In this document: piece after piece, positions 9,677-41,223 of the stretch | How the letters are laid out: each line of letters starts with the position of its first letter | How positions within the stretch are numbered: position 1 is the first letter of the stretch | Virus record (IMG/VR): IMGVR_UViG_3300045988_168866 | Strand: one strand, 5' to 3' | From: a virus | Length of the DNA: 64,000 bases | Program-made: the position numbers and the translations under genes | The notes under the pieces: model-generated | What the model was told of the DNA's origin: nothing | Database searches by the model: none | What the model saw: only the letters and a program-made list of their open reading frames with translations

Positions 9677-12211
9677 TTATTGTGGTAAAATAACTGTTTG
9701 ATTTTGAGAATTTTTTCTTATATGATTACATATTGCTTTTCCAAATATATCATCATCTGAATAAGTTTCACCTTCAAGATCTATATCTACTGATGAATTA
9801 TTTCTATTATGTTTACCCATAGCAATAGGTCTACCTGAACTATCATAAATAAAGGTATAAGCTTCCTGAACAAAAAATGGGTCCTTTATTATTAAAGAAT
9901 CTTCTCTAATATCCTTTTCTAAACCCTCAATTATTACTGAACGGTTCTTAGAAGTAGTCAACCATCCTGGAACCAATTCCTGTTCAGGTTTACTTTTACC
10001 CTTCTTTTTAAATAATTTAGAATAGTAGTATAAATTTGGATAGCCTTCATCTTGTAACATTATAGTTACTGCAGCTCCAATATCATTGGTTTCCGGTGCT
10101 ATCTTAGCATAATTGAATTTTTCACCTGTATCACCTAAAAGTTTAGCATATTTATCCAAAGGTATCTTTCCTTTAAATACTGCTACCTCTTCTCCTTGTT
10201 TATTCATACAAGTAAATGATGAATAGTCAGTACCTCTACCAGTTGCACAGTCAGCACCAATAAAATATTCTTCATCTCTTGGATCAGTAAATTCTTTATA
10301 CTGACCATTGAATCTTGATTTGAGTACTGGATAATCAGATAATGTATCTTCTATAGCTTTTATATCTGATAAGTCAAATACTGTATTACCAGAAGAAAGG
10401 AAGTCACCATCAATTTCTTGAGCTGTTCTCTTAGGTCCAAGAGCAGATGACATTTTTTGGTACCATTCATCATCTCTATCAGGATGCATCCTCCAATATA
10501 ACCTTAAAGGATTAAAACCATTTAATCCAGATATAGCATCTACCCATGTTGAGTGGTAGAACCCTCCTGTTCCATATGGAGTATTTTTATTAATAAAATT
10601 ATACTCTTCTTGGTTTTTTCTGTTTTTATTATAGTTATAAGTAATATAGCTATGATGATCTTCTACTGTAATATCATAGATATTAGTTTTAAATTTTCTT
10701 AGAACTTTTAATTTTGAAAGTTTTACTTGATTGCCTCTTTCTCTACTTATGATTTTATTTATATAATTCCTGGAACTCTTTTGTGACATGTTACTAAATA
10801 CAGGATTATTTCTTATAAAATCATTTATACCTTTTTTAGATATTTCACCAGATTCTATGCCTTTTAAAACAACAGCTACTGAATCTAAATCAGTAAAACC
10901 TTTACCAGTTCTAGTACCTAATTTAAGTCCATAAGAATATAAACTAGCTTTTCTAGTATTTTCTTTTCTAGAAATAACTCTTAAATTAGTTACCCAATTA
11001 TGATATGGTACACAATCTATATGATCTATCACTTGATTTTTACCAACTTTAAAATCAGTAAAATGTGATAAAACTAGATCAGCCATTCTAAAATGTTTTG
11101 ATTTACCTTTACCACTATGAAGTATCACTCTTATATAACCACTATCATTTGGTCTAGGATTTTTCTTGTACCACTTACCACCTCTAAGAAATTTTAATTC
11201 ACCTCTATTTGATATTTGATAATTATCATAACCCTTTACAAATTTCCATATTTCTTTTTCTGGCCATTTAATTTTGGGAGGTTCAATTAATTCTGATAAA
11301 CCAGTTTTATACAAAATTACCTGTTCATCTTTTTCGATTATATCTCTTACTGACATAAAACCATTTAGAGTATATAATTTATGGTCAGGAGTACATTTTA
11401 ATGTAGTACCAAATTCAGTTTGGATTTTCCAGGTTTCTAATCTACCTTTATTTACTGCAGCTACAATTCTTTTCCATTCACCTTTATGAGTTAATACTCT
11501 TAGATTACTTACAAATGATAAATCAACTGCTGATTTAGGTTTACTTGGGCATATATTTTTTATTTTTAATAAACCCTTATCAGTAATAATTTTTGTATTA
11601 CCAGAAACACAGCTATTTATGATAGCTGAGCCTCCAGTTGAAACTGTTGGAAAGGCTGCAGCCCAAATAGTAGCTGCCCATCTTACTATAGCTGCCTCAT
11701 CAATTACTAATAAAGAAAGTGATTCTGAACGTCCTGCTTGATCTGATGTTGGGATAGATTCTATTATGGAACCATTTGAGAATTCCATAGTAGAAGCTGA
11801 ACCGTATTCTCCAAATCTACCATTTACTATTGGGGTTTGTAAATACCAGGGTAGATTTTTATACATAAATTTTATCTTCTTCAGGACTTTTTTTGCTACT
11901 GTATCTTTTATGGAAATAATGTTTACTTTTTTATTTGGGTGATACATACATAACCATAAACAATACATAGATATTAATTCAGTTATACCAGCTTGTCTAA
12001 ATTTTAAAATAATATTAAACCTTTCTTTTAAGAACTGATATAATACTGATTTTTGATAAGGATATAAATCAAATTGTACTCTACCCAATACAGGATTTAC
12101 TACATATATGAAATTTGAAAAGTAAAATACATCCTTAGATACTTTAGCTAGAATTCTAATTTCTTCTGAGGTTAATTTTTTATTTTCTTCTTTTAAGATT
12201 CTTCTTGCCAT
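9677..12211 (-). CDS. terL: terminase large subunit, interrupted by an intein
   Basis: Walker A-like 'KFRQAGITE', Walker B 'LLVIDEAA', ATPase motif III split as 'AIINS | intein | TPYGTGG', nuclease-domain acidic motifs 'IGADCATGRGTDYS' and 'IAPETNDIG'; 844 aa, roughly 340 aa longer than usual. Confidence 0.9.
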   Translation of the reverse strand: MARRILKEENKKLTSEEIRILAKVSKDVFYFSNFIYVVNPVLGRVQFDLYPYQKSVLYQFLKERFNIILKFRQAGITELISMYCLWLCMYHPNKKVNIISIKDTVAKKVLKKIKFMYKNLPWYLQTPIVNGRFGEYGSASTMEFSNGSIIESIPTSDQAGRSESLSLLVIDEAAIVRWAATIWAAAFPTVSTGGSAIINSCVSGNTKIITDKGLLKIKNICPSKPKSAVDLSFVSNLRVLTHKGEWKRIVAAVNKGRLETWKIQTEFGTTLKCTPDHKLYTLNGFMSVRDIIEKDEQVILYKTGLSELIEPPKIKWPEKEIWKFVKGYDNYQISNRGELKFLRGGKWYKKNPRPNDSGYIRVILHSGKGKSKHFRMADLVLSHFTDFKVGKNQVIDHIDCVPYHNWVTNLRVISRKENTRKASLYSYGLKLGTRTGKGFTDLDSVAVVLKGIESGEISKKGINDFIRNNPVFSNMSQKSSRNYINKIISRERGNQVKLSKLKVLRKFKTNIYDITVEDHHSYITYNYNKNRKNQEEYNFINKNTPYGTGGFYHSTWVDAISGLNGFNPLRLYWRMHPDRDDEWYQKMSSALGPKRTAQEIDGDFLSSGNTVFDLSDIKAIEDTLSDYPVLKSRFNGQYKEFTDPRDEEYFIGADCATGRGTDYSSFTCMNKQGEEVAVFKGKIPLDKYAKLLGDTGEKFNYAKIAPETNDIGAAVTIMLQDEGYPNLYYYSKLFKKKGKSKPEQELVPGWLTTSKNRSVIIEGLEKDIREDSLIIKDPFFVQEAYTFIYDSSGRPIAMGKHNRNNSSVDIDLEGETYSDDDIFGKAICNHIRKNSQNQTVILPQ
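10583..11611 (-). mobile_element. intein (343 aa, residues C201-N543 of TerL) carrying an HNH/NUMOD4-type homing endonuclease domain
   Basis: Starts 'CVSGNTKIITDKG' (block A, Cys codon at 11609-11611); block B 'TPDH'; endonuclease 'YDNYQISNRGELK' plus 'HIDCVPYHNWVTNLRVISRKENTRKA'; block F 'YDITVEDHHSY'; ends '..FINKN' followed by Thr (+1). Removing it restores 'IINSTPYGTGG', the TerL S-T-P-x-G motif. Confidence 0.85.
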
Positions 12212-17517: not shown

Positions 17518-18282
17518 ATGAATATAGAAATAAAATCAATCTTTGGTGAGATTCTATTTTCTTTTGAGAAAGAGAACAACACAATCAAAGATACTTTACT
17601 AGAAGCTTATTTAGAAGGCATCAATTTAGAATATTCAGACTTAAAAAAAGCTAACCTAGAAGGAATAAATCTAAAAGAAATCAACCTTAAAGGAGCAGAT
17701 CTCAGAGAAACAAATCTAAGATACTCAGATCTCAGAAATGCTAACTTAGAAGATGTTGACTTTAATGAATCCGACCTAAAGGGAATTAACCTAGAAAATG
17801 CCAATCTAAAAGGAGCTAATATAAGTAATACCAATTTAAATTGTGCTAACCTAAATGGTGCTAATTTAGAGAATATTAAGTATTCCATATATACAACCTT
17901 CCTGTCATTACAATGCCCATCTGAAGGAAGTTTTATGGGATGGAAAAGAATTGATAAATACATAATCAAATTAAAAATACCTGAAGATTCAGAAAGAAGT
18001 TCATCAACAAATATAATATGTAGATGTTCAAAAGTAGAAGTACTAGAAATACAAAATATTGACGGAAGTATAGAGCCTGATATAACAGAAATATGTTCCA
18101 ATCATGATAAAACCTTTATATACAAAGTGGGTGAAATAGTTGAAGTAAAAAACTTTGATAAAAATAGATGGAATAAATTTTCAAATGGGATACATTTTTT
18201 TATAGATAGGAATATGGCTGTAGTTTATGGAAGTAATTTATTGGGTATTAAAGATATCAATCTGTACCTGAAACAATATTAG
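17518..18282 (+). CDS. pentapeptide-repeat protein with a Cys-containing C-terminal domain
   Basis: Residues about 30-120 form tandem A(D/N)LxX pentapeptides (ANLEGINLKEINLKGADLRETNLRYSDLRNANLEDVDFNESDLKGINLENANLKGANISNTNLNCANLNGANLENI); C-terminal domain ends '..NGIHFFIDRNMAVVYG'. Confidence 0.85.
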   Translation: MNIEIKSIFGEILFSFEKENNTIKDTLLEAYLEGINLEYSDLKKANLEGINLKEINLKGADLRETNLRYSDLRNANLEDVDFNESDLKGINLENANLKGANISNTNLNCANLNGANLENIKYSIYTTFLSLQCPSEGSFMGWKRIDKYIIKLKIPEDSERSSSTNIICRCSKVEVLEIQNIDGSIEPDITEICSNHDKTFIYKVGEIVEVKNFDKNRWNKFSNGIHFFIDRNMAVVYGSNLLGIKDINLYLKQY

Positions 18283-18992: not shown

Positions 18993-19030
18993 TTTTTTTA
19001 TTTTTTTGTTTACTAATTTAATTTTTTAAA

Positions 19031-19052
19031 AAGGGGGAAATTTCCCCCTTTT
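19031..19052 (-). terminator. intrinsic terminator
   Basis: Palindrome 'gggggaaatttccccc' (19033-19048) with flanking A/T runs, 3 nt after the stop of 19055-19390. Confidence 0.75.
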
Positions 19053-19054
19053 TT

Positions 19055-19390
19055 TCATTTGTTCATTACTGAAACGAATCGTTTAATTAATTGTACACTT
19101 TCTTTATTTGTGTTGTTATCCATAATAATTTCAATATTATTATAGACTAATTTTGCGTATTCTTTCCAATCTTTTTTAAGTGCTTCTAATTTGTTTTTAT
19201 CTTTTTCAACAACTAAAAAAGTAGAAAGAAATGCGTCTCTTTTTTTTCTTAATTTAATTCTGATTGATTTTTTTTCTTTGTCTGTTTTTCCCTCAAATAA
19301 TTCTTTTTTGTAAATTGTTGCACGATTAAAAGAAATTTCTTTTTGGATTGTTTCGTTACCGATTGCAAAAATTTTTTCTAAATTACTCAT
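19055..19390 (-). CDS. hypothetical protein
   Basis: 111-aa Lys-rich ORF; terminator immediately downstream. Confidence 0.5.
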   Translation of the reverse strand: MSNLEKIFAIGNETIQKEISFNRATIYKKELFEGKTDKEKKSIRIKLRKKRDAFLSTFLVVEKDKNKLEALKKDWKEYAKLVYNNIEIIMDNNTNKESVQLIKRFVSVMNK

Positions 19391-19486
19391 AATATTTTGC
19401 TAAAAAATTTTGGAAAATAAAATAAAGAAAAAAGAATAAATTTTTTAGACTTATTAGAAAAATCTTCTTTCCTTTTGTTTACATTA

Positions 19487-19494
19487 CAAAGATA
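19487..19494 (-). promoter_or_regulatory. TAnnTTTG (-7 type) box
   Basis: The minus strand reads TATCTTTG, 96 nt upstream of the ATG at 19390. Confidence 0.35.
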
Positions 19495-19870
19495 CTATAC
19501 TTTTTCTTATAAAAAAATTTTTTCACTGAAAAATAACTTTAAAAAAGTGAATATAATTTAATTGATTATTTACGTATATATAATATATGTATATAGAAAT
19601 AATCATTATATATACAATACATAATAACAAAAAATATCTTAATATAATTTAAAACCAAACTCCCATGGGTTACCTCCAAGGGTATATTGGGCTTACTTTA
19701 AAAGTGGTCATTGTCGATGGGTATTTTTTCTGGGCCTCACTGATACTAATGCCTGATACCCAAATTAACCTTTTTCTCCCTGAATCCTTTGTGCCTATAA
19801 TGGCCAATAAATATTCGCCCATTGTAGCTAACTTAATATTCATGATTGGCCATAAAGGCCAAAACTAAAA

Positions 19871-19887
19871 GGCTCCTTGAAAGAGCC
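19871..19887 (-). terminator. weak terminator-like hairpin
   Basis: The minus strand reads GGGCTCTTTCAAGGAGCC followed by TTTTAGTTTT; only a 5-bp stem. Confidence 0.35.
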
Positions 19888-20115
19888 CATAGATGGCCTA
19901 TACTTTTAACTCACTTCCTCTTTGTTGCGTATATAAATATATTATAAGATAACTTAATATATACCTCTAGAGAATTATTTTTAGTTTAAGAATAATTTAT
20001 TTATCTTTTAAGCATACCAAATTCTATGAATGATATAAGGCTTTAATATTATTAAGCTTTTGGGCCCTTATAATAACATGATTAATAAACATAATAATTA
20101 AATTATTTTATTGCC

Positions 20116-20147
20116 TATCAATTCAAGCAAATTATCAATTCAAGCAA
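20116..20147 (+). repeat. 15-bp tandem direct repeat
   Basis: 'tatcaattcaagcaa' at 20116-20130 and 20133-20147. Confidence 0.8.
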
Positions 20148-20250
20148 CACACAAAAATGGGACCTAAATATACATCCCGTACCTTTAAGTCCCTGATGAT
20201 AACAATTATTATGAGTAATTTTATATGTTATATGGATTATAATAGTCAAG

Positions 20251-20610
20251 TCAGGATTTATTATGAACTAAGTATAAAAATTTACCACTAACTTTATCCT
20301 GAACTTTTATCATTATCGTAGTTTCTATCTTTTTATGTTCATCCAAGAAATCTATAATTCTCCTGTAACAATCATCGGTTGTATCATGGTATCCTTTACC
20401 AAAATTAACTGGATCCGTAAAAATTATCCTGAACCTTTCCTTCATTTTTTCAGGATTTTCCAAAATATCAAATATAACCTTCTTGCCATATTTCTTAACT
20501 AAACTATTCATTAGTTCAATGCAAAATTCTTCCCTGAATGTATTATCTTCTGTCCACTTAAAATAATTAACATCCTGTTCGTTGTCCGGAATAAAAAATA
20601 CTTCTACCAT
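20251..20610 (-). CDS. hypothetical protein
   Basis: 119-aa ORF; shares an 'IL(E/K)NPE' segment with the upstream ORF (possible paralogs). Confidence 0.5.
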   Translation of the reverse strand: MVEVFFIPDNEQDVNYFKWTEDNTFREEFCIELMNSLVKKYGKKVIFDILENPEKMKERFRIIFTDPVNFGKGYHDTTDDCYRRIIDFLDEHKKIETTIMIKVQDKVSGKFLYLVHNKS

Positions 20611-20628: not shown

Positions 20629-20895
20629 TTAATACTCTAAACTTAATTCCTGTAATAAATATAAACCCTCTAAAGTTAAATCCTCATATATATCAGGCAA
20701 GGGATAATAAACCAGAAAATTAAAATTATAATCTTCAGGATTCTTAAGAATATTATCCCTAGTTTCCTTATTATATAATCTTTCGACCTCTTTGAGAAAA
20801 TATTCAATACATTCGTTATTAATAAAACCATTATATATAATAACTTGGGAATTGGTTAATTCCTGAATTGGTTTGAAGGTGATTATTGTTTTCAT
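20629..20895 (-). CDS. hypothetical protein
   Basis: 88-aa ORF with a TAnnTTTG box 22 nt upstream. Confidence 0.5.
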   Translation of the reverse strand: MKTIITFKPIQELTNSQVIIYNGFINNECIEYFLKEVERLYNKETRDNILKNPEDYNFNFLVYYPLPDIYEDLTLEGLYLLQELSLEY

Positions 20896-20917
20896 AATTT
20901 TATTTTTTAATTCAATA

Positions 20918-20925
20918 CAAATATA
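20918..20925 (-). promoter_or_regulatory. TAnnTTTG (-7 type) box
   Basis: The minus strand reads TATATTTG, 22 nt upstream of the ATG at 20895. Confidence 0.5.
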
Positions 20926-20974
20926 ATATTTATTTATTATATAATATAATATTAATATAAATATTTCTGAGGCA

Positions 20975-21838
20975 CCTGAACAGGTATTAAAATTTTAACC
21001 TGATTTAGAATCCTGATTTAATTTACCTGATTAATTATCTTGTTATTATTACATGATTAAAACCATTCAAGATATTATCAGTATTTATCATGTTTAATTT
21101 ATCAGGTTAGAATAATTGGTTCTCTAGAATAATTTCCTGTGGGCCTATCCTGAACCTGAATTAACCCATATATTATAATATAAATAAACATTTAGGAACA
21201 TGATAAATTAATCCTAATTGGTAAACATGATAAATAATACATGATAAAATTACCTGTTTAATTTATCCTGATTTGGAGTCCTGATAATTTTAACCAATAT
21301 ATTATATAATATAATAAATTAAGAACCTTCAGGAACCTGTTTTAATTAACCTGATATAAATAACATGTTAAGAATAACCCAATTTAGAACCTGATAAAGT
21401 GTCCTGATTAGAATATCCTGTTATTTTTTAACCTGATTAGTTAAACCTATTATAATATATTATATATACATGATAATAAAAACTATTCAGGATTAGTATC
21501 ATGTTTTAAATATCAGGATATTAAAAATTGCCTTCTGGGCTACCCATAACGGGCCTTACCAGATCCTGATTAATTTATCCTGAATTAGTTATCCTGATTA
21601 ATTAACCCAATATATTATATATAATATAAATAAAGCCTGGGATTCAGGATACTTTTCAGGATATTATTATTTTACTCCTTTGGGCTTATAGGGGCCTTAC
21701 ATCCTCTACACGTTGTAGCTGGTTTACACATCCTGAATAATGGGCCTTGGTTCCTTCCTGACTTAAATCCTGAATACATTTTTTCAGGCAATTTTTTAAT
21801 AATTTCAGGCAATTTCAGGTACCGTTTGGGCTGCCTGA
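20975..21838 (+). repeat. left arm: array of about 22 CCTGA(T) boxes organised in 4-5 degenerate 120-160-nt composite units
   Basis: Hand-located CCTGA at 20975, 20999, 21012, 21026, 21149, 21155, 21267, 21280, 21350, 21390, 21403, 21432, 21565, 21579, 21593, 21732, 21757, 21769, 21834 and CCTGT variants; AT-palindromic boxes at about 21163, 21292, 21443, 21604. Confidence 0.85.
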
Positions 21839-21839
21839 T

Positions 21840-21990
21840 TTTATAATTTCAGGTACCCAAAAGTAGCCCAAAAAGGGGCGTTTGGGCCCTATTTTTTGAA
21901 AATGCCAACTAGCAAAAGAGGTGGTGGAAACAGTGCCCAGAGAATACTTTGGGCTCACCGGACAATAGCGGGTGCACTATATGTTTTTGG
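21840..21990. other. GC-rich core between the repeat arms
   Basis: Visibly GC-rich relative to the flanks; contains 'agcccaaaaaggggcgtttgggcc' (inverted gcccaaa/tttgggc), 'ggtggtgg' and several TTTGGGC(C/T) boxes. Confidence 0.7.
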
Positions 21991-22020
21991 TATATGTATT
22001 GTATGGTTTTGATTGTATAT

Positions 22021-22028
22021 TATATTTG
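22021..22028 (+). promoter_or_regulatory. orphan TAnnTTTG box facing rightwards with no + strand ORF downstream
   Basis: The + strand reads TATATTTG at the inner edge of the right repeat arm. Confidence 0.35.
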
Positions 22029-22347
22029 GTTTATTTTTTATTATTATATTATCAGGATTATATTGGTTTTATTTATCAGGTATTCTAATCAGGATATTTT
22101 TATCTTGTATTTTTAATTAGGTTTTTATTATCTGGTAATTAATATCTTGTTACTTTATTGGGATTTAAATATTGGGTTTATAATTTCATGTTTTAATTAT
22201 CATGATTAATATATTGGGTTAATTAATCAGGATTTTATTAACATGTTATTTATATCATGTATGGGTTATTATAATTAGGTTAATTATTTTTTTAATATTA
22301 TTTTTTTGTTTTGGTTAGGGATGGTGTATTATTTTTCTGGGTTCAGG
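22021..22347 (+). repeat. right arm: TCAGG / ATTGGG boxes in the orientation opposite to the left arm
   Basis: TCAGG at 22052, 22076, 22089, 22227, 22343. The 25-mer 'atatattgggttaattaatcaggat' at 22209-22233 is the exact reverse complement of 21591-21615. Confidence 0.8.
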
Positions 22348-22412
22348 ATGGTTTGGAGGTAATATTTTATTATTTTGTGTTTGGGAATTTGGGATTCTGA
22401 TTTAATAGAATT

Positions 22413-22440
22413 AAAGGGTACCTGTGATTGGGTACCCTTT
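22413..22440. terminator. intrinsic terminator hairpin (usable on both strands)
   Basis: 'aaagggtacc tgtgattg ggtacccttt', 15 nt after the stop of 22455-22901; followed on the + strand by 'ggatttttt'. Confidence 0.7.
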
Positions 22441-22454
22441 GGATTTTTTGTGGG

Positions 22455-22901
22455 TTATTTTTGATTGGGTTGGATGTTGTATTTTAATTCTAGTATGGGT
22501 AGATAGAACTTAGCGTATATGTCTATCATTTCTTGGTTGTCTGATTCTTCATAGAAGGTTTCTATAAGTTTGGCTAGTTTTTGTAATATTTCTTGTTGTT
22601 GGGATTTATTGGTTAGGAGTTTGGAACCATTGAATATGGTTTCTAGGTTATCAGGATTGTAATCGAAGAATTGATCGTCGTTTCCTTCTAGAAGGTTTAA
22701 TTGGGATAGTTGTAATAATAGATCTTTGATTAGAAGTTCTTCTGAATCATAGGTATATAGGTAATATGATTCAGTTAGTGATTCTTTTACTTGGAAGGTG
22801 TTATTGAAGTTTTCTAGAATGTTTTCACCTTGGAATGATATTAAATAGAATGGATATTCTTGGATTAATTTCTTGGATTGTTTTTCGTTGATTGTTTTCA
22901 T
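22455..22901 (-). CDS. hypothetical protein
   Basis: 148-aa acidic Gln/Leu/Asn-rich ORF; its coding strand is unusually C-rich and G-poor. Confidence 0.5.
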   Translation of the reverse strand: MKTINEKQSKKLIQEYPFYLISFQGENILENFNNTFQVKESLTESYYLYTYDSEELLIKDLLLQLSQLNLLEGNDDQFFDYNPDNLETIFNGSKLLTNKSQQQEILQKLAKLIETFYEESDNQEMIDIYAKFYLPILELKYNIQPNQK

Positions 22902-22915
22902 AATTTGTTGGTTTT

Positions 22916-23377
22916 TTAAAGTTCTTGATAATAATATGGTAAATCATAATAGTTTTGATTCAGTAGTGCAATTTGTATTTTTTCTAGGTCATCGAGTAAT
23001 CCTATTTTATTTTGTATTGGATTCTTGGATGTATTGAATAATAATTTAGATATGATTCCTAGTGAGTTATGTATTAGGATGGAATTAATTGGTTCCATTA
23101 TATTATCGTCTATGATAAAGGTTATGGAACCTAGTGTATTTATTATTGTTTCTAGGTTTTGTTCCGGATTTTCAATTAGGTGATTTAATTTACCTAGTAT
23201 ATTGCCAATCATTGTTGGTAAATTTTTATTTGATTCAATGTATAGATATCCATTTTTGTTCTTGTATGAGTATGGTGTGAATAAATTTTGGTTGATATCC
23301 TGGTTCTTGATGTCTATGAATTGTGCATATATTATATATGCTGATTCAATTGTTGGGTTAGATGATTTTGTTTCCAT
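22916..23377 (-). CDS. hypothetical protein
   Basis: 153-aa ORF preceded by the duplicated 58-bp promoter/leader cassette. Confidence 0.5.
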   Translation of the reverse strand: METKSSNPTIESAYIIYAQFIDIKNQDINQNLFTPYSYKNKNGYLYIESNKNLPTMIGNILGKLNHLIENPEQNLETIINTLGSITFIIDDNIMEPINSILIHNSLGIISKLLFNTSKNPIQNKIGLLDDLEKIQIALLNQNYYDLPYYYQEL

Positions 23378-23423
23378 ATATTTTTATTTTTAATATTATA
23401 TACAAATATAATATTTTTATTTT
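23366..23423 (-). repeat. 58-bp promoter/leader/start-codon cassette, copy 1
   Basis: Identical to 25762-25819; contains TATATTTG (23403-23410, minus strand) 25 nt upstream of the ATG and the first codons (M-E-T). Confidence 0.8.
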
Positions 23424-23523
23424 ATTAATTAATTCTTTTTATTAAAAATATCCTTGGTGGGTTCTAGAGTAGTGTTTTGGCTTTAGTGTTTTTATGGTTT
23501 ATTAATCTTAGTGGTTTAGGGTT

Positions 23524-23582
23524 AAATGCATATGATGTCCAGTTTAATAATGTATATTGTAGCTGGTGTATCATATGCATTT
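23524..23582 (-). repeat. 13-bp perfect inverted repeat hairpin downstream of 23591-24148
   Basis: 'aaatgcatatgat' (23524-23536) and 'atcatatgcattt' (23570-23582). Confidence 0.5.
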
Positions 23583-23590
23583 GGATTAAT

Positions 23591-24148
23591 TTATATGAAA
23601 TCGTACCAATATATTGTAGTTTGGTCTAATTCTTTGTCTTTATCCTTAGGATATTTCTTTTGAAATAGCTTTGGGATTGGTGGATACCATGCTTTTCTGA
23701 AATTTGGGAACATATCCACTTCTTTGAATTTTGGTCCTATGTAATATGGGTTATCATATACTAACCAATCTGATTTTCTTATTATTTTATAGCATAATGG
23801 ACTCATTGAAAAGTTCATATATAGATATTTGAAGTACATATCTTTGTTCTTTTTGCTATAAAAAGCAAATGTATCTTCAAGCACTATTCGAAATATTATA
23901 TGCTTTTCATTTAAATATTTTATTATTTCATCTAAGTTAATTTTATATTCACATAATCCATGGCAAGGGATTAATTCTAGAGTTTCTTTTTTCTTATTAG
24001 ATATAATTTTAACTCTAATATCTAATATTATTACTTTGCCTATTTGTTTATCTATTAATTTATCTTGGCATTTACTAAATGGATAAAATATCCAATGATA
24101 AAACTTACGGGGTTTATAACCCGTAAGTGAATTATGAGATCCAAACAT
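23591..24148 (-). CDS. hypothetical protein with weak PLC-like phosphodiesterase N-terminal motifs
   Basis: 'GSHNSLTGY' near the N-terminus and 'VIILDIRV' about 35 aa later resemble the PI-PLC X-domain motifs (G(T/S)H(D/N)S ... (F/L)D(I/L)R); only 185 aa, so partial at best. Confidence 0.25.
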   Translation of the reverse strand: MFGSHNSLTGYKPRKFYHWIFYPFSKCQDKLIDKQIGKVIILDIRVKIISNKKKETLELIPCHGLCEYKINLDEIIKYLNEKHIIFRIVLEDTFAFYSKKNKDMYFKYLYMNFSMSPLCYKIIRKSDWLVYDNPYYIGPKFKEVDMFPNFRKAWYPPIPKLFQKKYPKDKDKELDQTTIYWYDFI

Positions 24149-24800: not shown

Positions 24801-25348
24801 AATATTATTGTTATAAATTTTAAAGTAAATGGTTCTTTCATTGATTTTCCATATTTGTCAATGTATAATAAATGACTGTATTTATTATTGGTTATTATTA
24901 ATACATATCCCTTAGTATCTTTATATTCTACCTCTTCTATATTTCTTATAATGTATAACTCATCATTATATAGAACCAGGGTATTTAAATATATACTTAA
25001 ATCAACTGATCCATATAATGGCAAAGTTTCCATATAGTGTATTCTACTATTGACTAAACTTTCTGTATCTATATTAATCTTTATTTCATCTTCTTCATCT
25101 CTAAATAATAAATGAAATCTATCATTTATATCTTTTACATATATTCTCCTATATGATTCTCGTAAGTCATAATAGATTTTGCCCTTTATTATTATCCAAT
25201 AACCAGATGGTCTATTGTCATTTCTGAATCTACCTACTGGTTTTTCTTTTTTTACCTGGATAATTTCATTTAGGTCTGAATTGTAGAGTTTTACACCTAA
25301 TTGTAATAATCTACTTAAATTGTTACTTATTTCTTCTAATGTCATCAT
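24797..25348 (-). CDS. hypothetical protein
   Basis: 183-aa ORF, 4-nt overlaps on both sides. Confidence 0.5.
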   Translation of the reverse strand: MMTLEEISNNLSRLLQLGVKLYNSDLNEIIQVKKEKPVGRFRNDNRPSGYWIIIKGKIYYDLRESYRRIYVKDINDRFHLLFRDEEDEIKINIDTESLVNSRIHYMETLPLYGSVDLSIYLNTLVLYNDELYIIRNIEEVEYKDTKGYVLIITNNKYSHLLYIDKYGKSMKEPFTLKFITIIL

Positions 25349-25773
25349 ATTGAATATAATACTTCAAAACTTAATAAATTTCTTTGTTTTAACTTTTTAA
25401 AACCAATTATTTCTATAACTCCATCACCATCAGTGAAATTATTAACGAATTCCATAAGATTTTTCATAATTGTAATTATTACCAAATCCCTATTTACTAG
25501 ACCCTGTTTACTATGAAAAATTATATTTAATAAACATTGGTCTTTTCCACTATCATGAAAGATATATTTCATCCCTATATCTCTGGGATCTATACCCTCT
25601 TTCTTTAAATAATCTAAAGTTAAAGTTAAATCTTCCTCTAACTTTTCATTAAAGTTATCGATGAATTCCTTATCTTTCACTGTCAAATCATTTTTTCTCT
25701 TTAACCATAGGTGATCAAAAAGTGATCGAGATACTTGGTTAATTGCTTTTTGTACGATTTCTTTTGTTTCCAT
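25345..25773 (-). CDS. hypothetical protein
   Basis: 142-aa ORF preceded by the second copy of the 58-bp promoter/leader cassette. Confidence 0.5.
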   Translation of the reverse strand: METKEIVQKAINQVSRSLFDHLWLKRKNDLTVKDKEFIDNFNEKLEEDLTLTLDYLKKEGIDPRDIGMKYIFHDSGKDQCLLNIIFHSKQGLVNRDLVIITIMKNLMEFVNNFTDGDGVIEIIGFKKLKQRNLLSFEVLYSI

Positions 25774-25819
25774 ATATTTTTATTTTTAATATTATATACA
25801 AATATAATATTTTTATTTT
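25762..25819 (-). repeat. 58-bp promoter/leader/start-codon cassette, copy 2
   Basis: Identical to 23366-23423; TATATTTG at 25799-25806 (minus strand). Confidence 0.8.
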
Positions 25820-34688: not shown

Positions 34689-35633
34689 TCATGGGTTTTT
34701 TAGATGTTTACCCCTCATTATATCTGGTAATGGCATCCTTTTTAAGTTATATGCTGAATCTAGAGTTTCACAAGTAAAATCCATATTATTAATGGAGTTA
34801 TAATTAATAGCTCTATTAATTAAACTTCTGTATTCTTTCCAGAAATTTAAACCAGATTTACAATCCCTGGTTTTTTCAAAGAAATTTTTTACCATTATAC
34901 CAAATAATTCAGCATCTTCCTGTTCCTCAAATATATAGATTTTCATATCAGTTATTTGGTTAACTATATTATCTTCTCTTTTTATTGGTACTACTACATA
35001 ACCTTCTTTAAAAAAATCTGATATAAAAGCTACATAATATCTTTTATCTGGTCTACCTGCTTTCCAATACATATCTACCATAGCCCTGATTTTAAAATCA
35101 GGTATACCATGAAGATATTTTATATATATCTTATCTTTTTTTGTATTTCTTCGTTTATATGGTGATGGTGCTTGAAGTATTCTTGGTAATATTCTAAAAT
35201 TATTCCATCTATCAAACTCCATTATTAATGCATATAAATCCTTATCCCATTTATCTTTGGATTTTTTGAGATTACTCATATTATTAATTATATGGTTATT
35301 CCTTACTGGTTTTAAAAGCCATGAGGAATCACCAGCATATTCTGAAGCTTCATCTTTTGGCAATCTTTTCAATATGCATCCATATAAATAATCTCTAAAT
35401 CTTTCAGATAAAGGTGCTTTTGGATTTATAAGAGAGGGGTATAAATAAAAATAATCCGAGAACATCTTAAAAAATTTCTCGGATCTAGCCTTTAATTCTA
35501 AATATTTATAATGAGTTATCTTTAATATTTCTCCAGTTTTCCAAGTTGATAAACCTTGGGATAATGTTAAAAATAAACTATTTTGTTCTTCTTTAGTTAA
35601 ACATTCCCAAGCTTTTTCTTGATAATCTTCCAT
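34689..35633 (-). CDS. hypothetical protein with N-terminal sigma-region-4/LuxR-like helix-turn-helix
   Basis: 'LTKEEQNSLFLTLSQGLSTWKTGEILKITHYKYLELKARSEKF' resembles the L..(E/R)...F.L...G.S..EI...L.I...V pattern of region-4 HTHs. Confidence 0.35.
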   Translation of the reverse strand: MEDYQEKAWECLTKEEQNSLFLTLSQGLSTWKTGEILKITHYKYLELKARSEKFFKMFSDYFYLYPSLINPKAPLSERFRDYLYGCILKRLPKDEASEYAGDSSWLLKPVRNNHIINNMSNLKKSKDKWDKDLYALIMEFDRWNNFRILPRILQAPSPYKRRNTKKDKIYIKYLHGIPDFKIRAMVDMYWKAGRPDKRYYVAFISDFFKEGYVVVPIKREDNIVNQITDMKIYIFEEQEDAELFGIMVKNFFEKTRDCKSGLNFWKEYRSLINRAINYNSINNMDFTCETLDSAYNLKRMPLPDIMRGKHLKNP

Positions 35634-38665: not shown

Positions 38666-39611
38666 TTATTAAGTCTACTAATAATTTTTTCCTATTTCTA
38701 TCTTTAATTCCTTTAGCTTTGAAATATCCAGATACTAATTTTTTATTTGATAGATCTAAAGTAATATTATGTTCTTTTGTCTCTTTATCATCTATAATTG
38801 GTTTGTTTATGATAGTATAATAATTACCATCATCTTTTACATATTCTTCAGATGATACATCAATAAATTTTGGGAATTTAGTAAATGGTATAAATTCCAT
38901 GGATAAATCAGAATATAACTTCCAATAACCTAATTCACAATTTTTATCAGTTCTTCTTTGTTGTAAAGGTGCACCTACCATATATACCTTTTTTGATAAT
39001 CTTTGTGGTTTATGTATATGGCCACATAATACTAAATCAAATTTGAAGAAACTGTTTATGTTTATATTTTCTACTGAACCAACTTCCACATCATCTGTGT
39101 CTTTTGCACCAGGATAATCAGTATGTATAAGTAATATATTTTTCTTATCATTGACTATGGGTATTTCTTTAACCCATTTAGTTAACCCTATATTGTGATC
39201 TAAATATGGTATGCCATGTATAATTATATCACCAAATTCTGCAGCCCTAAAATCTATACAGGTAATAAACTTATATATTTTAGAAAAAGAACTTATCCAA
39301 CTTGATGATTTATTTCCTATTGAATTAGTTTTTGACATATCATGATTACCTGATATACAAAATAAATTCCAACTTCCATCATTAAGTTTATTAAATTCTC
39401 TTATAATAATTTCAAATAAATCATTAGTAATTAATTCAGGTTTATGGAATAAATCCCCACAAAATATTCCTTGGCATTTGTATTTATTACATAATTCTTT
39501 TACTAAAGAAAGAACCTTAAAATGATTTAAGGTTCTTATATTATCCTGATTAAATTTTGCCCATTGATTTATATGAAGATCAGAGAATACTATAGCTGAT
39601 ACTTTTTTCAT
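38640..39611 (-). CDS. sbcD: SbcD/Mre11-family nuclease (T4 gp47-like)
   Basis: Calcineurin-like phosphoesterase motifs 'FSDLH', 'GDLFH', 'GNHD', 'IHTD', 'GHIH' in the canonical order. Confidence 0.85.
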   Translation of the reverse strand: MKKVSAIVFSDLHINQWAKFNQDNIRTLNHFKVLSLVKELCNKYKCQGIFCGDLFHKPELITNDLFEIIIREFNKLNDGSWNLFCISGNHDMSKTNSIGNKSSSWISSFSKIYKFITCIDFRAAEFGDIIIHGIPYLDHNIGLTKWVKEIPIVNDKKNILLIHTDYPGAKDTDDVEVGSVENININSFFKFDLVLCGHIHKPQRLSKKVYMVGAPLQQRRTDKNCELGYWKLYSDLSMEFIPFTKFPKFIDVSSEEYVKDDGNYYTIINKPIIDDKETKEHNITLDLSNKKLVSGYFKAKGIKDRNRKKLLVDLINECDDRIH

Positions 39612-40270
39612 CTTAAGAATGACTTTATTATATTTTTTCTCCTATCTAATGTAATATCTCTCAATATTAAAATATTTACTGATTTATCCTCCCCATAATC
39701 AATAATGTTACCCATTTCAGTCTTTCCCCCAAATTTTAATGAGAAAAATGAAGATTTATTATATCCCATAATATCTTTAATTACACCGTCCATTATTAGG
39801 GATATCTGATATTGGTAATATCTATTTGTTATCCTTTTACCATTATCTTCCATATTCCATTTTCTAGTATCAAAGTATTCTATTGTAAATGGTATATAGA
39901 TAATATGAGTAAATTGTTTAAATAATAATACTTTACATTGTTCAATAAAAGTATCCATATCACATTGTTGATGCTTATGTGATAATTTATTTATCATATA
40001 AGCTACTGAATCAATATAACATCTATCTGTTACAAAATCTCTATCCTGTTTAGCATATAGATTTCTTCTTTTATTTAACAATTGGTATTCCTTCATAAAT
40101 AAAGGCATATTAACCATTTCTTCATGTGTTATATTTTTAGTTTCAGGTATTAAATCTGAATATGAAGAAGATATAAAAGGTATTTTATATTCTTCTGATA
40201 TCCATTTTGCTAAAGTAGTTTTACCTATACCACTTGGACCTGCAAAACCTATTCTTCTGAATTCTTCCAT
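39608..40270 (-). CDS. P-loop (deoxy)nucleotide kinase-like protein
   Basis: Walker A 'GPSGIGKTT' at residues about 11-19 and 'DRCYIDSVAYM', which resembles the DR...S..AY motif of dNK/thymidylate-kinase-type enzymes. Confidence 0.45.
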   Translation of the reverse strand: MEEFRRIGFAGPSGIGKTTLAKWISEEYKIPFISSSYSDLIPETKNITHEEMVNMPLFMKEYQLLNKRRNLYAKQDRDFVTDRCYIDSVAYMINKLSHKHQQCDMDTFIEQCKVLLFKQFTHIIYIPFTIEYFDTRKWNMEDNGKRITNRYYQYQISLIMDGVIKDIMGYNKSSFFSLKFGGKTEMGNIIDYGEDKSVNILILRDITLDRRKNIIKSFLR

Positions 40271-41223
40271 GATTTTAATGTTTTAAATGGTTTTATAAAT
40301 TCACTTGTTAAAAATGAACCCAAAGTATATTCCTTAAATATGAATTGTAGTTTCTTAGTATTTATGGTATCTTTTTTATAAAAAATTACTGGGATTTTAT
40401 TTAATGGGTATTCTTTTAATGCAACCCTTATATCTATAAGTGGTTTATTTCTTTTATATAAATCCTCTAGTCCTTCAAAATCTATACCATTAAATTCATT
40501 ATCTTTATTTGAAAGAAAATTCTCTATAGAACCAAATTCATCCAAAAATTTTCTAGCTTTTACTGGTCCTATACCTTTATAACCTGGTATATCATCTGAT
40601 TTATCACCAACTAAACATAAATAATCAACACATTCTTTTGGTGAATAACTCATTTCTTTTGTACAAGTTTTTTCCTGTATTATACATTCTTTAAAAGGAT
40701 TATATATTTTAATGTTGCCATCTATTAATTGACAAAAATCCTTATCTGAAGATATTATTAATACTTTACCATTATGATTTAATGCATAATGCCCAATATA
40801 ATCATCAGATTCATGACCTAACCCTTTTTTGTCCCATACTACTGGTATGTTTAAATATTTCAGGATTTTTTTTACTGTTCTTAATTGTTTATTAAAACTT
40901 TCATAATCCATAGAAATATTTTCTCTGTGTTTTTTATAACTACCCAGTAAATTATTTCTAAAATTACTTTCTTTACTTTGTTTGGTATCAAAAGTTATAA
41001 TCAAATAACCAGGTCTAAACCTTATTAAATATGAATTTAGTAATCTCATAAACCCATAAATTAAACCAGTTGGAACCCCATTATAAGATCTTAACTTTTC
41101 AAATTTTTGATAAGCTCTATGTGCTAAATTAGAACCATCAATTATCATTAATTGTTTTCTATCTGATTTTTTACGCTTCTTCTTCATAATCATCATTTTC
41201 TTCTGAATCATTGAATGATTCAT
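40249..41223 (-). CDS. 5'-3' exonuclease / flap endonuclease (RNase H-like, Pol I N-terminal type)
   Basis: 'LMIIDGSNLAHRAY' (compare LLLVDGSSL.FRA), 'SSDKDFCQL', 'GDKSDDIPGYKGIGPVKARKFL' H3TH motif. The true start is probably an internal Met around 41187. Confidence 0.85.
   Translation of the reverse strand: MNHSMIQKKMMIMKKKRKKSDRKQLMIIDGSNLAHRAYQKFEKLRSYNGVPTGLIYGFMRLLNSYLIRFRPGYLIITFDTKQSKESNFRNNLLGSYKKHRENISMDYESFNKQLRTVKKILKYLNIPVVWDKKGLGHESDDYIGHYALNHNGKVLIISSDKDFCQLIDGNIKIYNPFKECIIQEKTCTKEMSYSPKECVDYLCLVGDKSDDIPGYKGIGPVKARKFLDEFGSIENFLSNKDNEFNGIDFEGLEDLYKRNKPLIDIRVALKEYPLNKIPVIFYKKDTINTKKLQFIFKEYTLGSFLTSEFIKPFKTLKSWKNSEE

Follow-up and report, generated by a model that had tools for sequence, protein, structure and literature searches.

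The window analyzed here is a stretch of 64,000 nucleotides from an uncultured phage of the human gut, whose genome has a GC content of 26% and whose structural and replication genes are intact under genetic code 11. The absence of Shine-Dalgarno sequences and the presence of TAnnTTTG promoters indicate a host of the Bacteroidota type. Positions 20896 to 22454 form what is probably the main non-coding control locus of this phage. The locus is bordered on the left by the start of an 88-aa early gene (20629-20895, - strand) and on the right by the stop of a 148-aa gene (22455-22901, - strand), at the place where a long one-directional gene array stops and small early genes with strong promoters start, 8 kb from the terminase genes. 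An ORF scan of the window agrees with the ORF-free block described in an earlier, sequence-only reading: with 1559 nt, it is the largest stretch without an ORF of at least 60 aa, the runner-up having 430 nt, and the window has no other large non-coding element. The GC-rich core described in that reading is also found in the composition scan, with a GC fraction of 0.40-0.43 at 21700-22000 compared to 0.18-0.25 in the arms; the flanks of the core at 20900-21100 and 22000-22300, with 17-18% GC, are the minimum of the neighbourhood. A tRNA/tmRNA scan found none, a DNA similarity search against 50,697 phage records gave no match, and a scan of bacterial genomes for carriage or prophage copies returned nothing but one contig that was mis-binned in a MAG and a contaminant of 421 nt. 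The features of the locus are collected in Table 1.

Table 1 Features of the non-coding locus, with positions in the window.
Feature	Positions	Strand	Remarks
Whole non-coding locus	20896-22454	.	No ORF of at least 60 aa; 34 boxes compared to 1.4 expected
Consensus phage promoter ATATTATATTTGT	20917-20929	-	Perfect match; Bacteroidota -7 element TAnnTTTG
Left arm	20975-21635	+	15 CCTGA on the + strand, 4 opposite
Perfect A/T-only palindrome TATATTATAATATA, unit 1	21169-21182	.	
Oriented (T)GGGC(C/T)T boxes	21537-21957	+	21537, 21551, 21682, 21692, 21742, 21828, 21876/21884, 21951
Invariant core	21590-22214	.	~99.5% identical in a four-strain alignment
25-nt perfect inverted repeat ATCCTGATTAATTAACCCAATATAT, left copy	21591-21615	+	Inverted-repeat pair I6
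Three-box module TTCAGGCA...TTTCAGGCAAT...TTCAGGTACCG	21772-21824	+	Common to relative L126
G+C-rich hairpin GCCCAAAAAGGGGCGTTTGGGC followed by a T-run	21866-21890	.	Also in the predicted fold
36-codon ORF (MPTSKRGGGNSAQRILWAHRTIAGALYVFGICIVWF)	21902-22012	+	No promoter found
Consensus-like promoter ATATTATATTTGG	22017-22029	+	12/13 match, TAnnTTTG intact
Right arm	22030-22410	+	5 TCAGG, ~10 TGGG(T/A)T clusters, 17-25% GC
25-nt inverted repeat, right copy	22209-22233	-	Not conserved in strain L001
14-bp-stem hairpin, then TTTTTT on the + strand	22411-22442	.	

The locus is built around a short word, CCTGA, of which 19 copies are found on the + strand between 20975 and 21834, and its complement TCAGG, of which 15 copies are found between 21102 and 22343. 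About 22 and about 15 copies, respectively, had been reported from the sequence alone; the second number is exact, and the enrichment is real for both words although the first was overcounted. Indeed, the densities of 12/kb for CCTGA and 10/kb for TCAGG contrast with ~1/kb elsewhere in the window, and the enrichment stands against dinucleotide-shuffled controls, the 34 boxes comparing with 1.39 ± 1.15 (maximum 6) in 1000 shuffles of the region itself. Over the window and on both strands, CCTGAT occurs 68 times compared to 26 ± 4 in shuffles. This box array occurs at a single site in the window: all other intergenic regions have at most one box, and none accompanies the remaining consensus promoters. 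The informative part of the box is A[T/A]CCTGA[T/A], about 7 bp, with flanks that are merely A/T-rich; ATCCTGATTAATTT is the corresponding CCTGA-box probe unit. A scan of IMG/VR with a gapped box pattern returned chance matches only.

The arrangement of the boxes is as regular as their number is high. With relaxed boxes included, successive boxes of the + strand are most often 14 nt (10 cases) or 13 nt (5 cases) apart, as in the earlier description, and Tandem Repeats Finder detects a period of 14 at 21334-21379, 21563-21603, 22064-22147, and 22176-22208. The relaxed CATGA version, which had also been pointed out, is present at six sites (21052, 21199, 21226, 21240, 21469, and 22201). The left zone (20896-21635) contains 15 CCTGA and 4 TCAGG, the middle zone (21636-21860) 4 and 6, and the right zone (21861-22454) 0 and 5, so that the strand of the boxes switches across the GC-rich center (Fisher p = 0.005 for the left zone compared to the rest) and the proposed opposed arms are real. 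In both arms, the box reads TCAGG on the strand pointing away from the center. The enrichment, spacing, and orientation of the boxes are far beyond chance, which makes the locus a real cis-element, and the sequence-only reading was accurate overall save for small count errors.

The left arm carries 14-bp tandem arrays at 20997-21035, 21334-21379, and 21563-21603, and includes four composite units of 129-160 nt (repeat finder families D10 and D17). Every 130-160-nt unit has one perfect A/T-only palindrome, the equivalents of the unit 1 palindrome being found at 21298-21313, 21451-21464, and 21611-21628 (14-18 bp), which agrees with the units and palindromic boxes first noticed by eye. TATATTATATAATATA is present also in relative L134. 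The inverted 25-mer reported earlier is likewise perfect, and no further copies of it were found in the window, nor in IMG/VR apart from the same phage. An invertible DNA segment was considered and rejected, since all five strains have the segment in one orientation and strain L001 has an altered right copy of the 25-mer; no recombinase was detected nearby. A miniature transposable element was also rejected, given that there is no target-site duplication and that the sequences flanking the 25-mers differ.

A second set of oriented boxes, (T)GGGC(C/T)T, spans 21537-21957, with an additional box at 21141. The 1-kb bin 21001-22000 alone has 9 of the 24 GGGC and 5 of the 9 GGGCC of the 64-kb window. 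The three-box module shared with L126 lies there on the opposite strand relative to the genes, and its local alignment score of 57 compares with 33 ± 4.8 in shuffles (n = 100), one of which reached 58. The G+C-rich hairpin in the core is terminator-like on both strands, and stronger on the + strand. The coding status of the 36-codon ORF is doubtful; between strains it shows an I to V change and a G to D change, the latter within its hydrophobic tail. In the right arm, the + strand is almost devoid of C, with a GC skew of +0.5 to +0.7; a period-14 array occupies 22064-22147, and the outer part (22215-22400) varies between strains.

Two promoters frame the arms. The left one points into the 88-aa gene and is the predicted driver of the early genes; its 13-mer also precedes the genes at 18007, 23402, 25798, and 58620, and the early-region promoter cassettes at 23402 and 25798 are identical over at least 40 nt. 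The right one, which is invariant in four strains, points rightward with no ORF downstream and is predicted to read through the C-depleted right arm to the hairpin that precedes the right border. This hairpin is predicted to be a bidirectional terminator, for the rightward non-coding transcript and for the leftward 148-aa gene. In strain L205, an A to G change in its stem keeps a U·G pair in the + RNA and gives C·A in the - RNA. Antisense promoters are found at the same edge in L126 and in the group of L127, L128, L132, L134, and L135. An array of outward-firing promoters had been suggested; both consensus promoters do point outward, but the repeat units carry TATATTGG and not the TAnnTTTG consensus. 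A sigma-70 promoter scan showed no excess over shuffles, sigma-70 being the wrong model for this host.

Five near-identical strains, all with contigs that run through the locus, show that its length ranges from 1342 to 1830 nt, with whole repeat units of the arms gained or lost. The core is ~99.5% identical in four strains, compared to 95-98% for the flanking genes, whereas the arms are rearranged. Substitutions between strains are rarer in the boxes (4/430) than outside them (84/3337 for all non-box positions and 34/818 for non-box G/C positions). In L205, several boxes were lost through point mutation. An invariant core with fast-changing arms is a signature of a functional cis-element under conflicting pressures.

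The possibility that related phages lack an equivalent region, raised in the earlier reading, does not hold: all 47 relatives scanned from the two nearest clades (L126-L172; gut phages of ~75-85 kb) have an equivalent gene-free region, as do most members of the 85-kb clade. In L126-L172, this ORF-free region has 0.7-1.4 kb and lies a few kb upstream of the homologue of a 111-aa protein. In most relatives, the enriched box words are TTAAGG/TTAGGG/GGTACC, AGGCAA/TTAGGTA, or TCAGGTACCGA, with a spacing of 11-15 nt; clade L211-L214 has a 1.8-kb gap in which box arrays are only weak. A sensitive blastn search against 79 related loci aligned only the promoter stretch 20893-20965, and TATTGGG, examined as a family-wide unit motif, was not enriched in the gaps of the relatives. 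At least three clades have the locus at an equivalent place on the map. A position that is conserved with words that are not is the pattern expected if the sites and their binding protein co-evolve.

We propose that the locus is a replication origin combined with an early-gene control region, with iteron-like protein-binding arrays, and give this reading a probability of roughly one in three. The 14-bp repeats would be binding sites for a multimerising DNA-binding protein, which is probably phage-encoded because relatives use different words at the same place, and which would assemble into nucleoprotein arrays of opposite orientation, one on each arm. Unwinding would be the role of the A/T palindromes and of the stretches of 17-18% GC. 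By transcribing divergently, the two flanking promoters may drive negative supercoiling into the left arm and the core, and the rightward promoter would read through the AT-rich right arm; supercoiling and read-through might both aid opening and priming, as in T4 oriF/oriG, the T7 primary origin, and lambda ori, before the T4-like replisome of the phage would take over. Its genes encode a DnaB-like helicase, a Toprim primase, a UvsW-like SF2 helicase, a gp32-like protein, a UvsX-like recombinase, SbcCD, and PolA, and a T4-like replisome with no recognisable initiator fits promoter-dependent origins.

Some observations weigh against an origin. In contrast to classical iterons of 17-22 bp, repeats with a 14-bp period do not stay in phase with the helix, and a transcript running rightward would be rich in U, a composition unfavourable to a stable R-loop. 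Neither an initiator nor a protein that binds the boxes was identified in the 64-kb window: Pfam and PHROG gave no hits for the neighbouring proteins, and the 111-aa protein (19055-19390), which is conserved and basic, is confidently modeled as a helical bundle (pLDDT 84.6), for which no PDB match was found by fold or by sequence. An array of DnaA boxes was rejected, as 20896-22454 has no site with at most one mismatch to TTATCCACA. The iteron-type bidirectional origin of the sequence-only reading is therefore plausible and the leading reading, against which stand the 14-bp period, the 7-bp box, and the lack of a recognisable initiator and of DnaA boxes. The cumulative GC skew of the relative MT121964 is monotonic, and uninformative because nearly all genes are on one strand.

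All the features listed above are also compatible with a purely transcriptional control region, a tentative but real possibility. The composite units would then be tandem promoter-like cassettes, comparable to T7 A1-A3 or to T4-type PeSL cassettes, and the CCTGA boxes would be operators that time or shut off early transcription. Indeed, the A/T-rich element of each unit ends in TATATTGG(G), one base off the phage promoter core TATATTTG, and in both arms it points in the same way as the flanking real promoter. The unit spacing of 129-161 nt is close to the 128 and 124 nt of T7 A1-A3, the 20917 promoter is preceded at 50-100 nt by three boxes and a CCTG..CAGG palindrome, relatives have TTARGG arrays at the matching position, and the surrounding early region is itself built of repeated promoter cassettes. 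Nevertheless, only two sites match the consensus, and all units have G where TTTG has T, a position that is regarded as critical in Bacteroides promoters. It would also be unusual for a regulator to have no boxes near the other promoters of the window, and the invariant GC-rich core and the opposed arms are left unexplained. A non-coding RNA locus, which seems unlikely, would use the 22017 promoter and the 22411 terminator to make a G/U-rich, C-poor RNA of ~410 nt, with one or more small structured RNAs in the core and UCAGG(A/U) acting in RNA, for example as a CsrB/RsmZ-like sponge. A consensus promoter with no downstream ORF but a strong hairpin and U-run 400 nt away, the L205 substitution that retains pairing in the + strand RNA only, folding z-scores of -2.2 to -2.7, and a GC-rich island that is invariant between strains in a genome of 26% GC, as is typical of RNA genes, would all fit, and UCAGGAU resembles the CsrB repeat CAGGAUG. 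These z-scores are modest and partly owed to terminators, however, and no Rfam family was matched in the window or in 7 relatives, whether thresholds were set at gathering level or relaxed. The left arm, which has most of the boxes, lacks a consensus promoter upstream of them, and palindromes of the relatives such as TTAAGGCCTTAA cannot form RNA hairpins, which points to recognition of double-stranded DNA. The sponge in particular is unlikely, given the lack of an Rfam match, the boxes being mostly paired in the predicted fold, and the relaxed CATGA boxes lacking GG; moreover, the sole unit with both a promoter and a terminator has only 5 boxes, and to our knowledge Bacteroides is reported to have no CsrA, Hfq, or ProQ.

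Two further explanations concern the fate of the DNA itself. The boxes could form a protective or decoy array, in which Chi-like words attenuate host AddAB/RecBCD moving outward from a break in the core, or they could be a neutral by-product, scars of recombination between promoter cassettes, growing and shrinking with no function. To the left and right of the core alike, CCTGA is on the 3'-ended strand, the active orientation for Chi, and the phage relies on genes for recombination-dependent replication (UvsX, SbcCD, gp32); the expansion and contraction of the arms between strains and the boxes lost in L205 would suit neutrality. We consider this pair quite improbable: we know of no Chi sequence for the host, the boxes of relatives are often palindromic and hence have no orientation, the boxes are conserved relative to their surroundings, and neutrality is at odds with a regular 14-bp phasing and with a theme that is conserved across the family. 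A role in packaging, either as a concatemer junction of the T7 type, whose physical ends or terminal repeat would be in the core, or as a pac site with the small terminase bound to boxes left and right of the cut (P1 pac and SPP1 pac being examples), is very improbable. It would account for a grammar that is the same as that of the T7 terminal-repeat arrays (heptamer, 13-nt spacing, relaxed variants) and for a map position that is also the same, where the long array has ended and the first early gene, with its promoters, has yet to begin, and the GenBank record of MT121964 is linearised within its equivalent region. Against it, the characterised proteins nearest to the large terminase are those of T4/cyanomyovirus (gp17) and Ackermannviridae, which are headful packagers, the terminase genes are 8 kb away, the breakpoints of long relative contigs (~76-79 kb) do not coincide with the region, and T7 arrays are co-oriented rather than opposed.

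If the origin reading is right, the locus would provide a handle for replicons and reporter constructs in Bacteroidota phages, and coverage peaks might become a marker of active replication in metagenomes. These phages are common in human gut metagenomes and were never cultured. A lineage-specific pair of box and protein would newly exemplify the turnover of recognition codes in phages and would offer a comparative route to the function of T7-type short-repeat arrays. More speculatively, this family of gut Bacteroidota phages may share an undescribed "box-code" locus, a non-coding organiser of 1-1.8 kb in which lineage-specific words of 6-7 bp with a period of 11-15 bp would recruit a phage protein that co-evolves rapidly. 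By forming two nucleoprotein filaments that oppose each other across an invariant core, this protein would give a defined bidirectional start to T4-like replisomes that have no known initiator. Such a locus might act as a determinant of specificity or incompatibility between co-infecting relatives, and the same principle would explain the long-unexplained T7 short-repeat arrays.

Among known systems, iteron origins (lambda ori, P1 oriR/incA, P4 ori and crr, and lactococcal phage origins) also have several oriented short repeats for one protein, beside very AT-rich DNA and a GC-richer segment; here, the adjacent AT-rich region is represented by the 17-18% GC stretches and the 14-18-bp A/T palindromes. 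As in those origins, repeat number varies between strains, and related replicons differ in their sites and specificity. In P4 crr and P1 incA, larger composite repeats combine direct and inverted copies. The phage locus differs from these origins by its 7-bp word and 13-14-bp period instead of in-phase repeats of 17-22 bp, by the lack of DnaA boxes and, in the 64-kb window, of a recognisable initiator gene overlapping or adjoining it, and by a length of 1.5 kb, several times that of a typical origin. T4 oriF (uvsY) and oriG (gene 34) consist of a promoter and a downstream unwinding element that forms an R-loop primer. The phage likewise has a T4-like replisome that includes a UvsW-like helicase, with no recognisable initiator, and a rightward promoter that reads into 300 nt of 17-18% GC DNA with no ORF. 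T4 origins are, however, ~100 bp long and have no box arrays, the predicted U-rich RNA of the phage would be unfavourable for a stable hybrid, and a strong terminator lies 400 nt downstream. The low-affinity DnaA sites of E. coli oriC and the inverted GAGGC pentamers of the SV40 origin are opposed arrays of short words, placed about a centre, that direct the assembly of two oppositely facing protein oligomers; the phage spacing is 13-14 bp rather than 11 bp, and TTATCCTGA does not match the CAC positions that are critical in the DnaA box.

The comparison with T7, whose genome was read directly (left array at nt 175-361, right array at ~39606-39740), goes furthest, as the sequence-only reading had suggested. 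The phage locus and the T7 arrays have no sequence similarity, and in T7 essentially every box has the + orientation, with arrays of strict 13-nt spacing beside both copies of a direct terminal repeat of 160 bp, whereas the phage locus has modes of 14 and 13 nt, arms that are opposed (15:4 left, 0:5 right) around an invariant GC-rich core, and no known terminal repeat, and the large terminase of the phage is of the T4 type. Nevertheless, T7 also has an oriented 7-bp word, CCTAAAG, with relaxed CATAAAG and CTTAAAG versions in some slots, in AT-rich non-coding DNA, and its gene-free junction of ~1.2 kb, which runs from the last late gene to the first early one, includes phiOL and phiOR as well as a tandem series of early promoters ~125 nt apart. 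The T7 CCTAAAG array is thus the closest known layout to that of the phage locus.

We observe that the block at 20896-22454, described as ORF-free in the sequence-only reading, is the sole long stretch of the window without an ORF of at least 60 codons (1559 nt, the runner-up being 430 nt). The earlier count of about 15 TCAGG boxes was exact, whereas the CCTGA boxes number 19 and not about 22. The claimed enrichment holds against dinucleotide shuffles of the locus itself (34 boxes observed vs 1.39 ± 1.15, maximum 6), and the top hexamers found de novo are CCTGAT, TCCTGA and the relaxed ACATGA, along with the palindrome GGTACC. When the 34 sites are tabulated by position, only A[T/A]CCTGA[T/A] carries information. 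The 13-14-nt spacing reported earlier is also recovered, 14 and 13 nt being the most frequent gaps between consecutive relaxed boxes, and Tandem Repeats Finder returns four period-14 arrays in the locus. The arms are indeed opposed: CCTGA:TCAGG is 15:4 in the left zone, 4:6 in the middle and 0:5 in the right zone (Fisher p = 0.005). The perfect inverted 25-mer, the composite units (129-160 nt) and the GC-rich centre all match the earlier description. Every composite unit contains an A/T-only perfect palindrome of 14-18 bp. Read outward from the centre, both arms have the same strand sense, with TCAGG words and TATATTGG(G)TT elements, the latter one base away from the promoter core. The sole paired-box site outside the locus is a palindrome within a coding region (Table).

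Table. Features of the locus, of its surroundings and of the gaps in relatives
Feature	Position	Strand	Details
Promoter consensus, second copy in locus	22017-22029	+	12/13 match, TAnnTTTG intact
Hairpin, 14-bp stem, then TTTTTT	22411-22442	both	about 400 nt beyond right-arm promoter
Second terminator-like hairpin	21866-21890		in centre
Perfect 18-bp palindrome of two boxes	35085-35102		CCTGATTTTAAAATCAGG, within coding region 34689-35633
Perfect 26-bp palindrome	19028-19053		AAAAAGGGGGAAATTTCCCCCTTTTT, between 111-aa gene and next gene; probably a bidirectional terminator
Gap words, L127-L172			TTAAGG, TTAGGG, TAAGGC, GGTACC; often palindromes, e.g. TTAAGGtaCCTTAA
Gap words, 85-kb clade			AGGCAA, TTAGGTA, TCAAGG
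Gap words, L126			TCAGGTACCGA, TCAGGCAAT

The phage promoter consensus, the 13-mer ATATTATATTTGT, includes TAnnTTTG, the Bacteroidota -7 promoter element, and perfect copies lie 5' of genes at 18007, 20917, 23402, 25798 and 58620. This recurrence, along with the lack of Shine-Dalgarno sequences in the window genes, marks the host as being of Bacteroidota type. The copy at 22017 is directed away from the centre, has no downstream ORF and continues into the right arm. This arm has a GC content of 17-25%, is nearly C-free on the + strand and shows a GC skew between +0.5 and +0.7. In the opposite direction, the hairpin beyond it terminates the 148-aa gene. The centre contains 8 or 9 co-oriented (T)GGGC(C/T)T words, and 9 of the 24 GGGC copies in the window fall within one kilobase there.

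The window (26% GC) covers the genome apart from about 10-13 kb and encodes a myovirus-type gene set, namely a major head protein (69-70% identical to those of the human-faecal metagenomic phages MT835790 and MT121964), portal, protease, baseplate wedge protein and a large terminase into which an HNH/intein-like segment is inserted. Its T4-like replication set comprises a DnaB-like helicase, Toprim primase, UvsW-like SF2 helicase and gp32-like protein, as well as a UvsX-like recombinase, SbcCD, PolA and a 5'-3' exonuclease. Two essential genes probably contain inteins or in-frame insertions of homing endonucleases: in the 844-aa terminase (9677-12211; the MT121964 homologue has 502 aa) residues about 295-536 form an HNH-endonuclease segment, and in the 740-aa recombinase (41171-43393) residues about 348-497 form a LAGLIDADG segment. 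The - strand carries nearly all genes, and the locus is placed between the final gene of a long array (22455-22901) and small early genes (20895 downwards).

Four further assemblies of the same phage were recovered, L001 (IMG/VR), L205 (74.4-kb ENA contig), L206 and L215 (77.2-kb Logan contig), with flanking genes at 95-98% identity. Between common anchors, the locus is 1342-1830 nt long in the five strains (window: 1651 nt), always in the same orientation. Left-arm differences consist of whole units present or absent, the outer right arm has two haplotypes, and over the 625 nt of the core (21590-22214) only about five differences separate the four aligned strains (window, L001, L205 and L206). 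Substitutions affect 4 of 430 box positions in the aligned columns vs 84 of 3337 non-box positions overall and 34 of 818 non-box G/C positions, which is only suggestive of box conservation because the strains are not independent; neither the strain set nor the relative set is phylogenetically independent, so that counts over them exaggerate how many independent events occurred. The 22411 hairpin of L205 has an A to G change that retains pairing, as U·G, in the + strand RNA but would give C·A in the - strand RNA.

Relatives were collected with the conserved 111-aa basic protein (19055-19390), downstream of the locus, as marker, giving 80 IMG/VR loci on contigs up to about 76-87 kb, with further clades from the protein database. 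Far from lacking an equivalent region, every one of the 47 loci scanned in the two nearest clades (L126-L172) has an ORF-free gap of about 0.7-1.4 kb within the first few kb on the upstream side of the marker, and in most of them another gap, of 0.5-0.9 kb, is present. Gap length is 0.8-1.1 kb in the 85-kb clade, and a clade at 62% identity has one 1.8-kb gap. An equivalent of the locus is therefore a family trait. Alignment of the relatives' gaps to the window gave nothing but promoter matches. Most of these gaps are enriched in short words of their own (Table), with spacing modes of 11-13 nt and 12-15 nt and a bias to the gene strand (472:261 and 296:105), and the CCTGA word with its large expansion is specific to the window's lineage. 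L126 has in common the three-box module 21772-21824, there on the opposite strand relative to genes, and antisense promoters occur at the upstream gap edge in L126 and the L127/128/132/134/135 group. Within L127-L172 the gap is 75-85% identical and includes an almost invariant 80-nt block (GCGAGTCTTTTAGGGGATTTTGGAACAGGTGTCTAAAATCGATATGCCAGGAATAGAG...). A variable-length (TA)n microsatellite adjoins this block on its upstream side and lies about 200 nt before the downstream promoter (e.g. L134 8330-8345); the two are possibly a phase-variable control element or a small-RNA gene.

Several neighbours of the locus show features of their own. Over 21900-23650 there is a strong reversal of GC skew (+0.3 to +0.7, + strand) although genes 22455-22901 and 22916-23377 read from the - strand, so that their coding strand is very G-poor and C/A-rich, unlike all other window genes. 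At the corresponding edge of their gap, relatives have about 500-700 nt that are also C-rich and G-poor, though less markedly, and the tract might be Rho-utilisation-like or tied to the antisense promoter at 22017. A second ORF-poor stretch, 19391-20250 (67-aa ORF only), has GC-rich patches rich in GGCC/GGGC words, with 6 of the 32 GGCC sites of the window; it lies upstream of the 111-aa gene, where relatives retain their second gap, and may be an additional non-coding RNA or control element. Promoter-leader cassettes at 23378-23414 and 25774-25810, identical over at least 40 nt including the first codons (ATGGAAACAAAA) and each preceded by a GC-rich stem and T-run, lead genes 22916-23377 and 25345-25773 and resemble the promoter/stem-loop (PeSL) cassettes shuffling early genes in T4-type phages. 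The small acidic proteins 20251-20610, 20629-20895 and 22455-22901, on both sides of the locus, are apparent paralogues with a common IL(x)NPE-type motif. In the 85-kb clade (L189) the homologue of the 148-aa protein (motif DDQ[FY]FDYN) is on the downstream side of the gap; in the window this protein is on the upstream side. A few kb away, 17518-18282 on the opposite strand encodes a protein that combines a DUF5758 domain with pentapeptide repeats, and proteins with such repeats frequently mimic DNA.

The words are short, regularly spaced, oriented and conserved, they change between lineages while the map position is fixed, and their palindromic pairs in relatives are too tight for RNA folding, all of which argues for a putative multimerising protein that recognises double-stranded DNA. 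The best fit, at a probability of about 0.35, is a replication origin combined with an early-control region, because of the unique position, extreme AT tracts and A/T palindromes, the invariant centre with variable arm copy number, the outward flanking promoters and a T4-like replisome without recognisable initiator. A purely transcriptional control region would account for these facts almost equally well, and we regard it as somewhat less probable. The right-arm promoter-terminator pair and the invariant, GC-rich core would also be compatible with one or more non-coding RNAs from the locus, which we consider rather unlikely. These three readings are mutually compatible. A packaging or terminus role is less likely because the terminase is T4-type, and a Chi-like or neutral explanation is possible and weakly supported.

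In comparison with known elements, membership of the locus in any described family cannot be claimed. Classical iteron origins, an analogy proposed earlier, have their logic in common with it, but not repeat length, phasing, an adjacent initiator or DnaA boxes. For T7, CCTAAAG and its one-mismatch variants number 24 in the first 1000 nt vs 3.7 ± 1.9 expected, such words recur every 13 nt in an array at nt 175-361, and a second array, with the strand sense of the first, borders the right terminal repeat on its left. Unlike the window locus, the T7 arrays are co-oriented and flank a terminal repeat; they nevertheless provide the closest described layout, at an equivalent map place.
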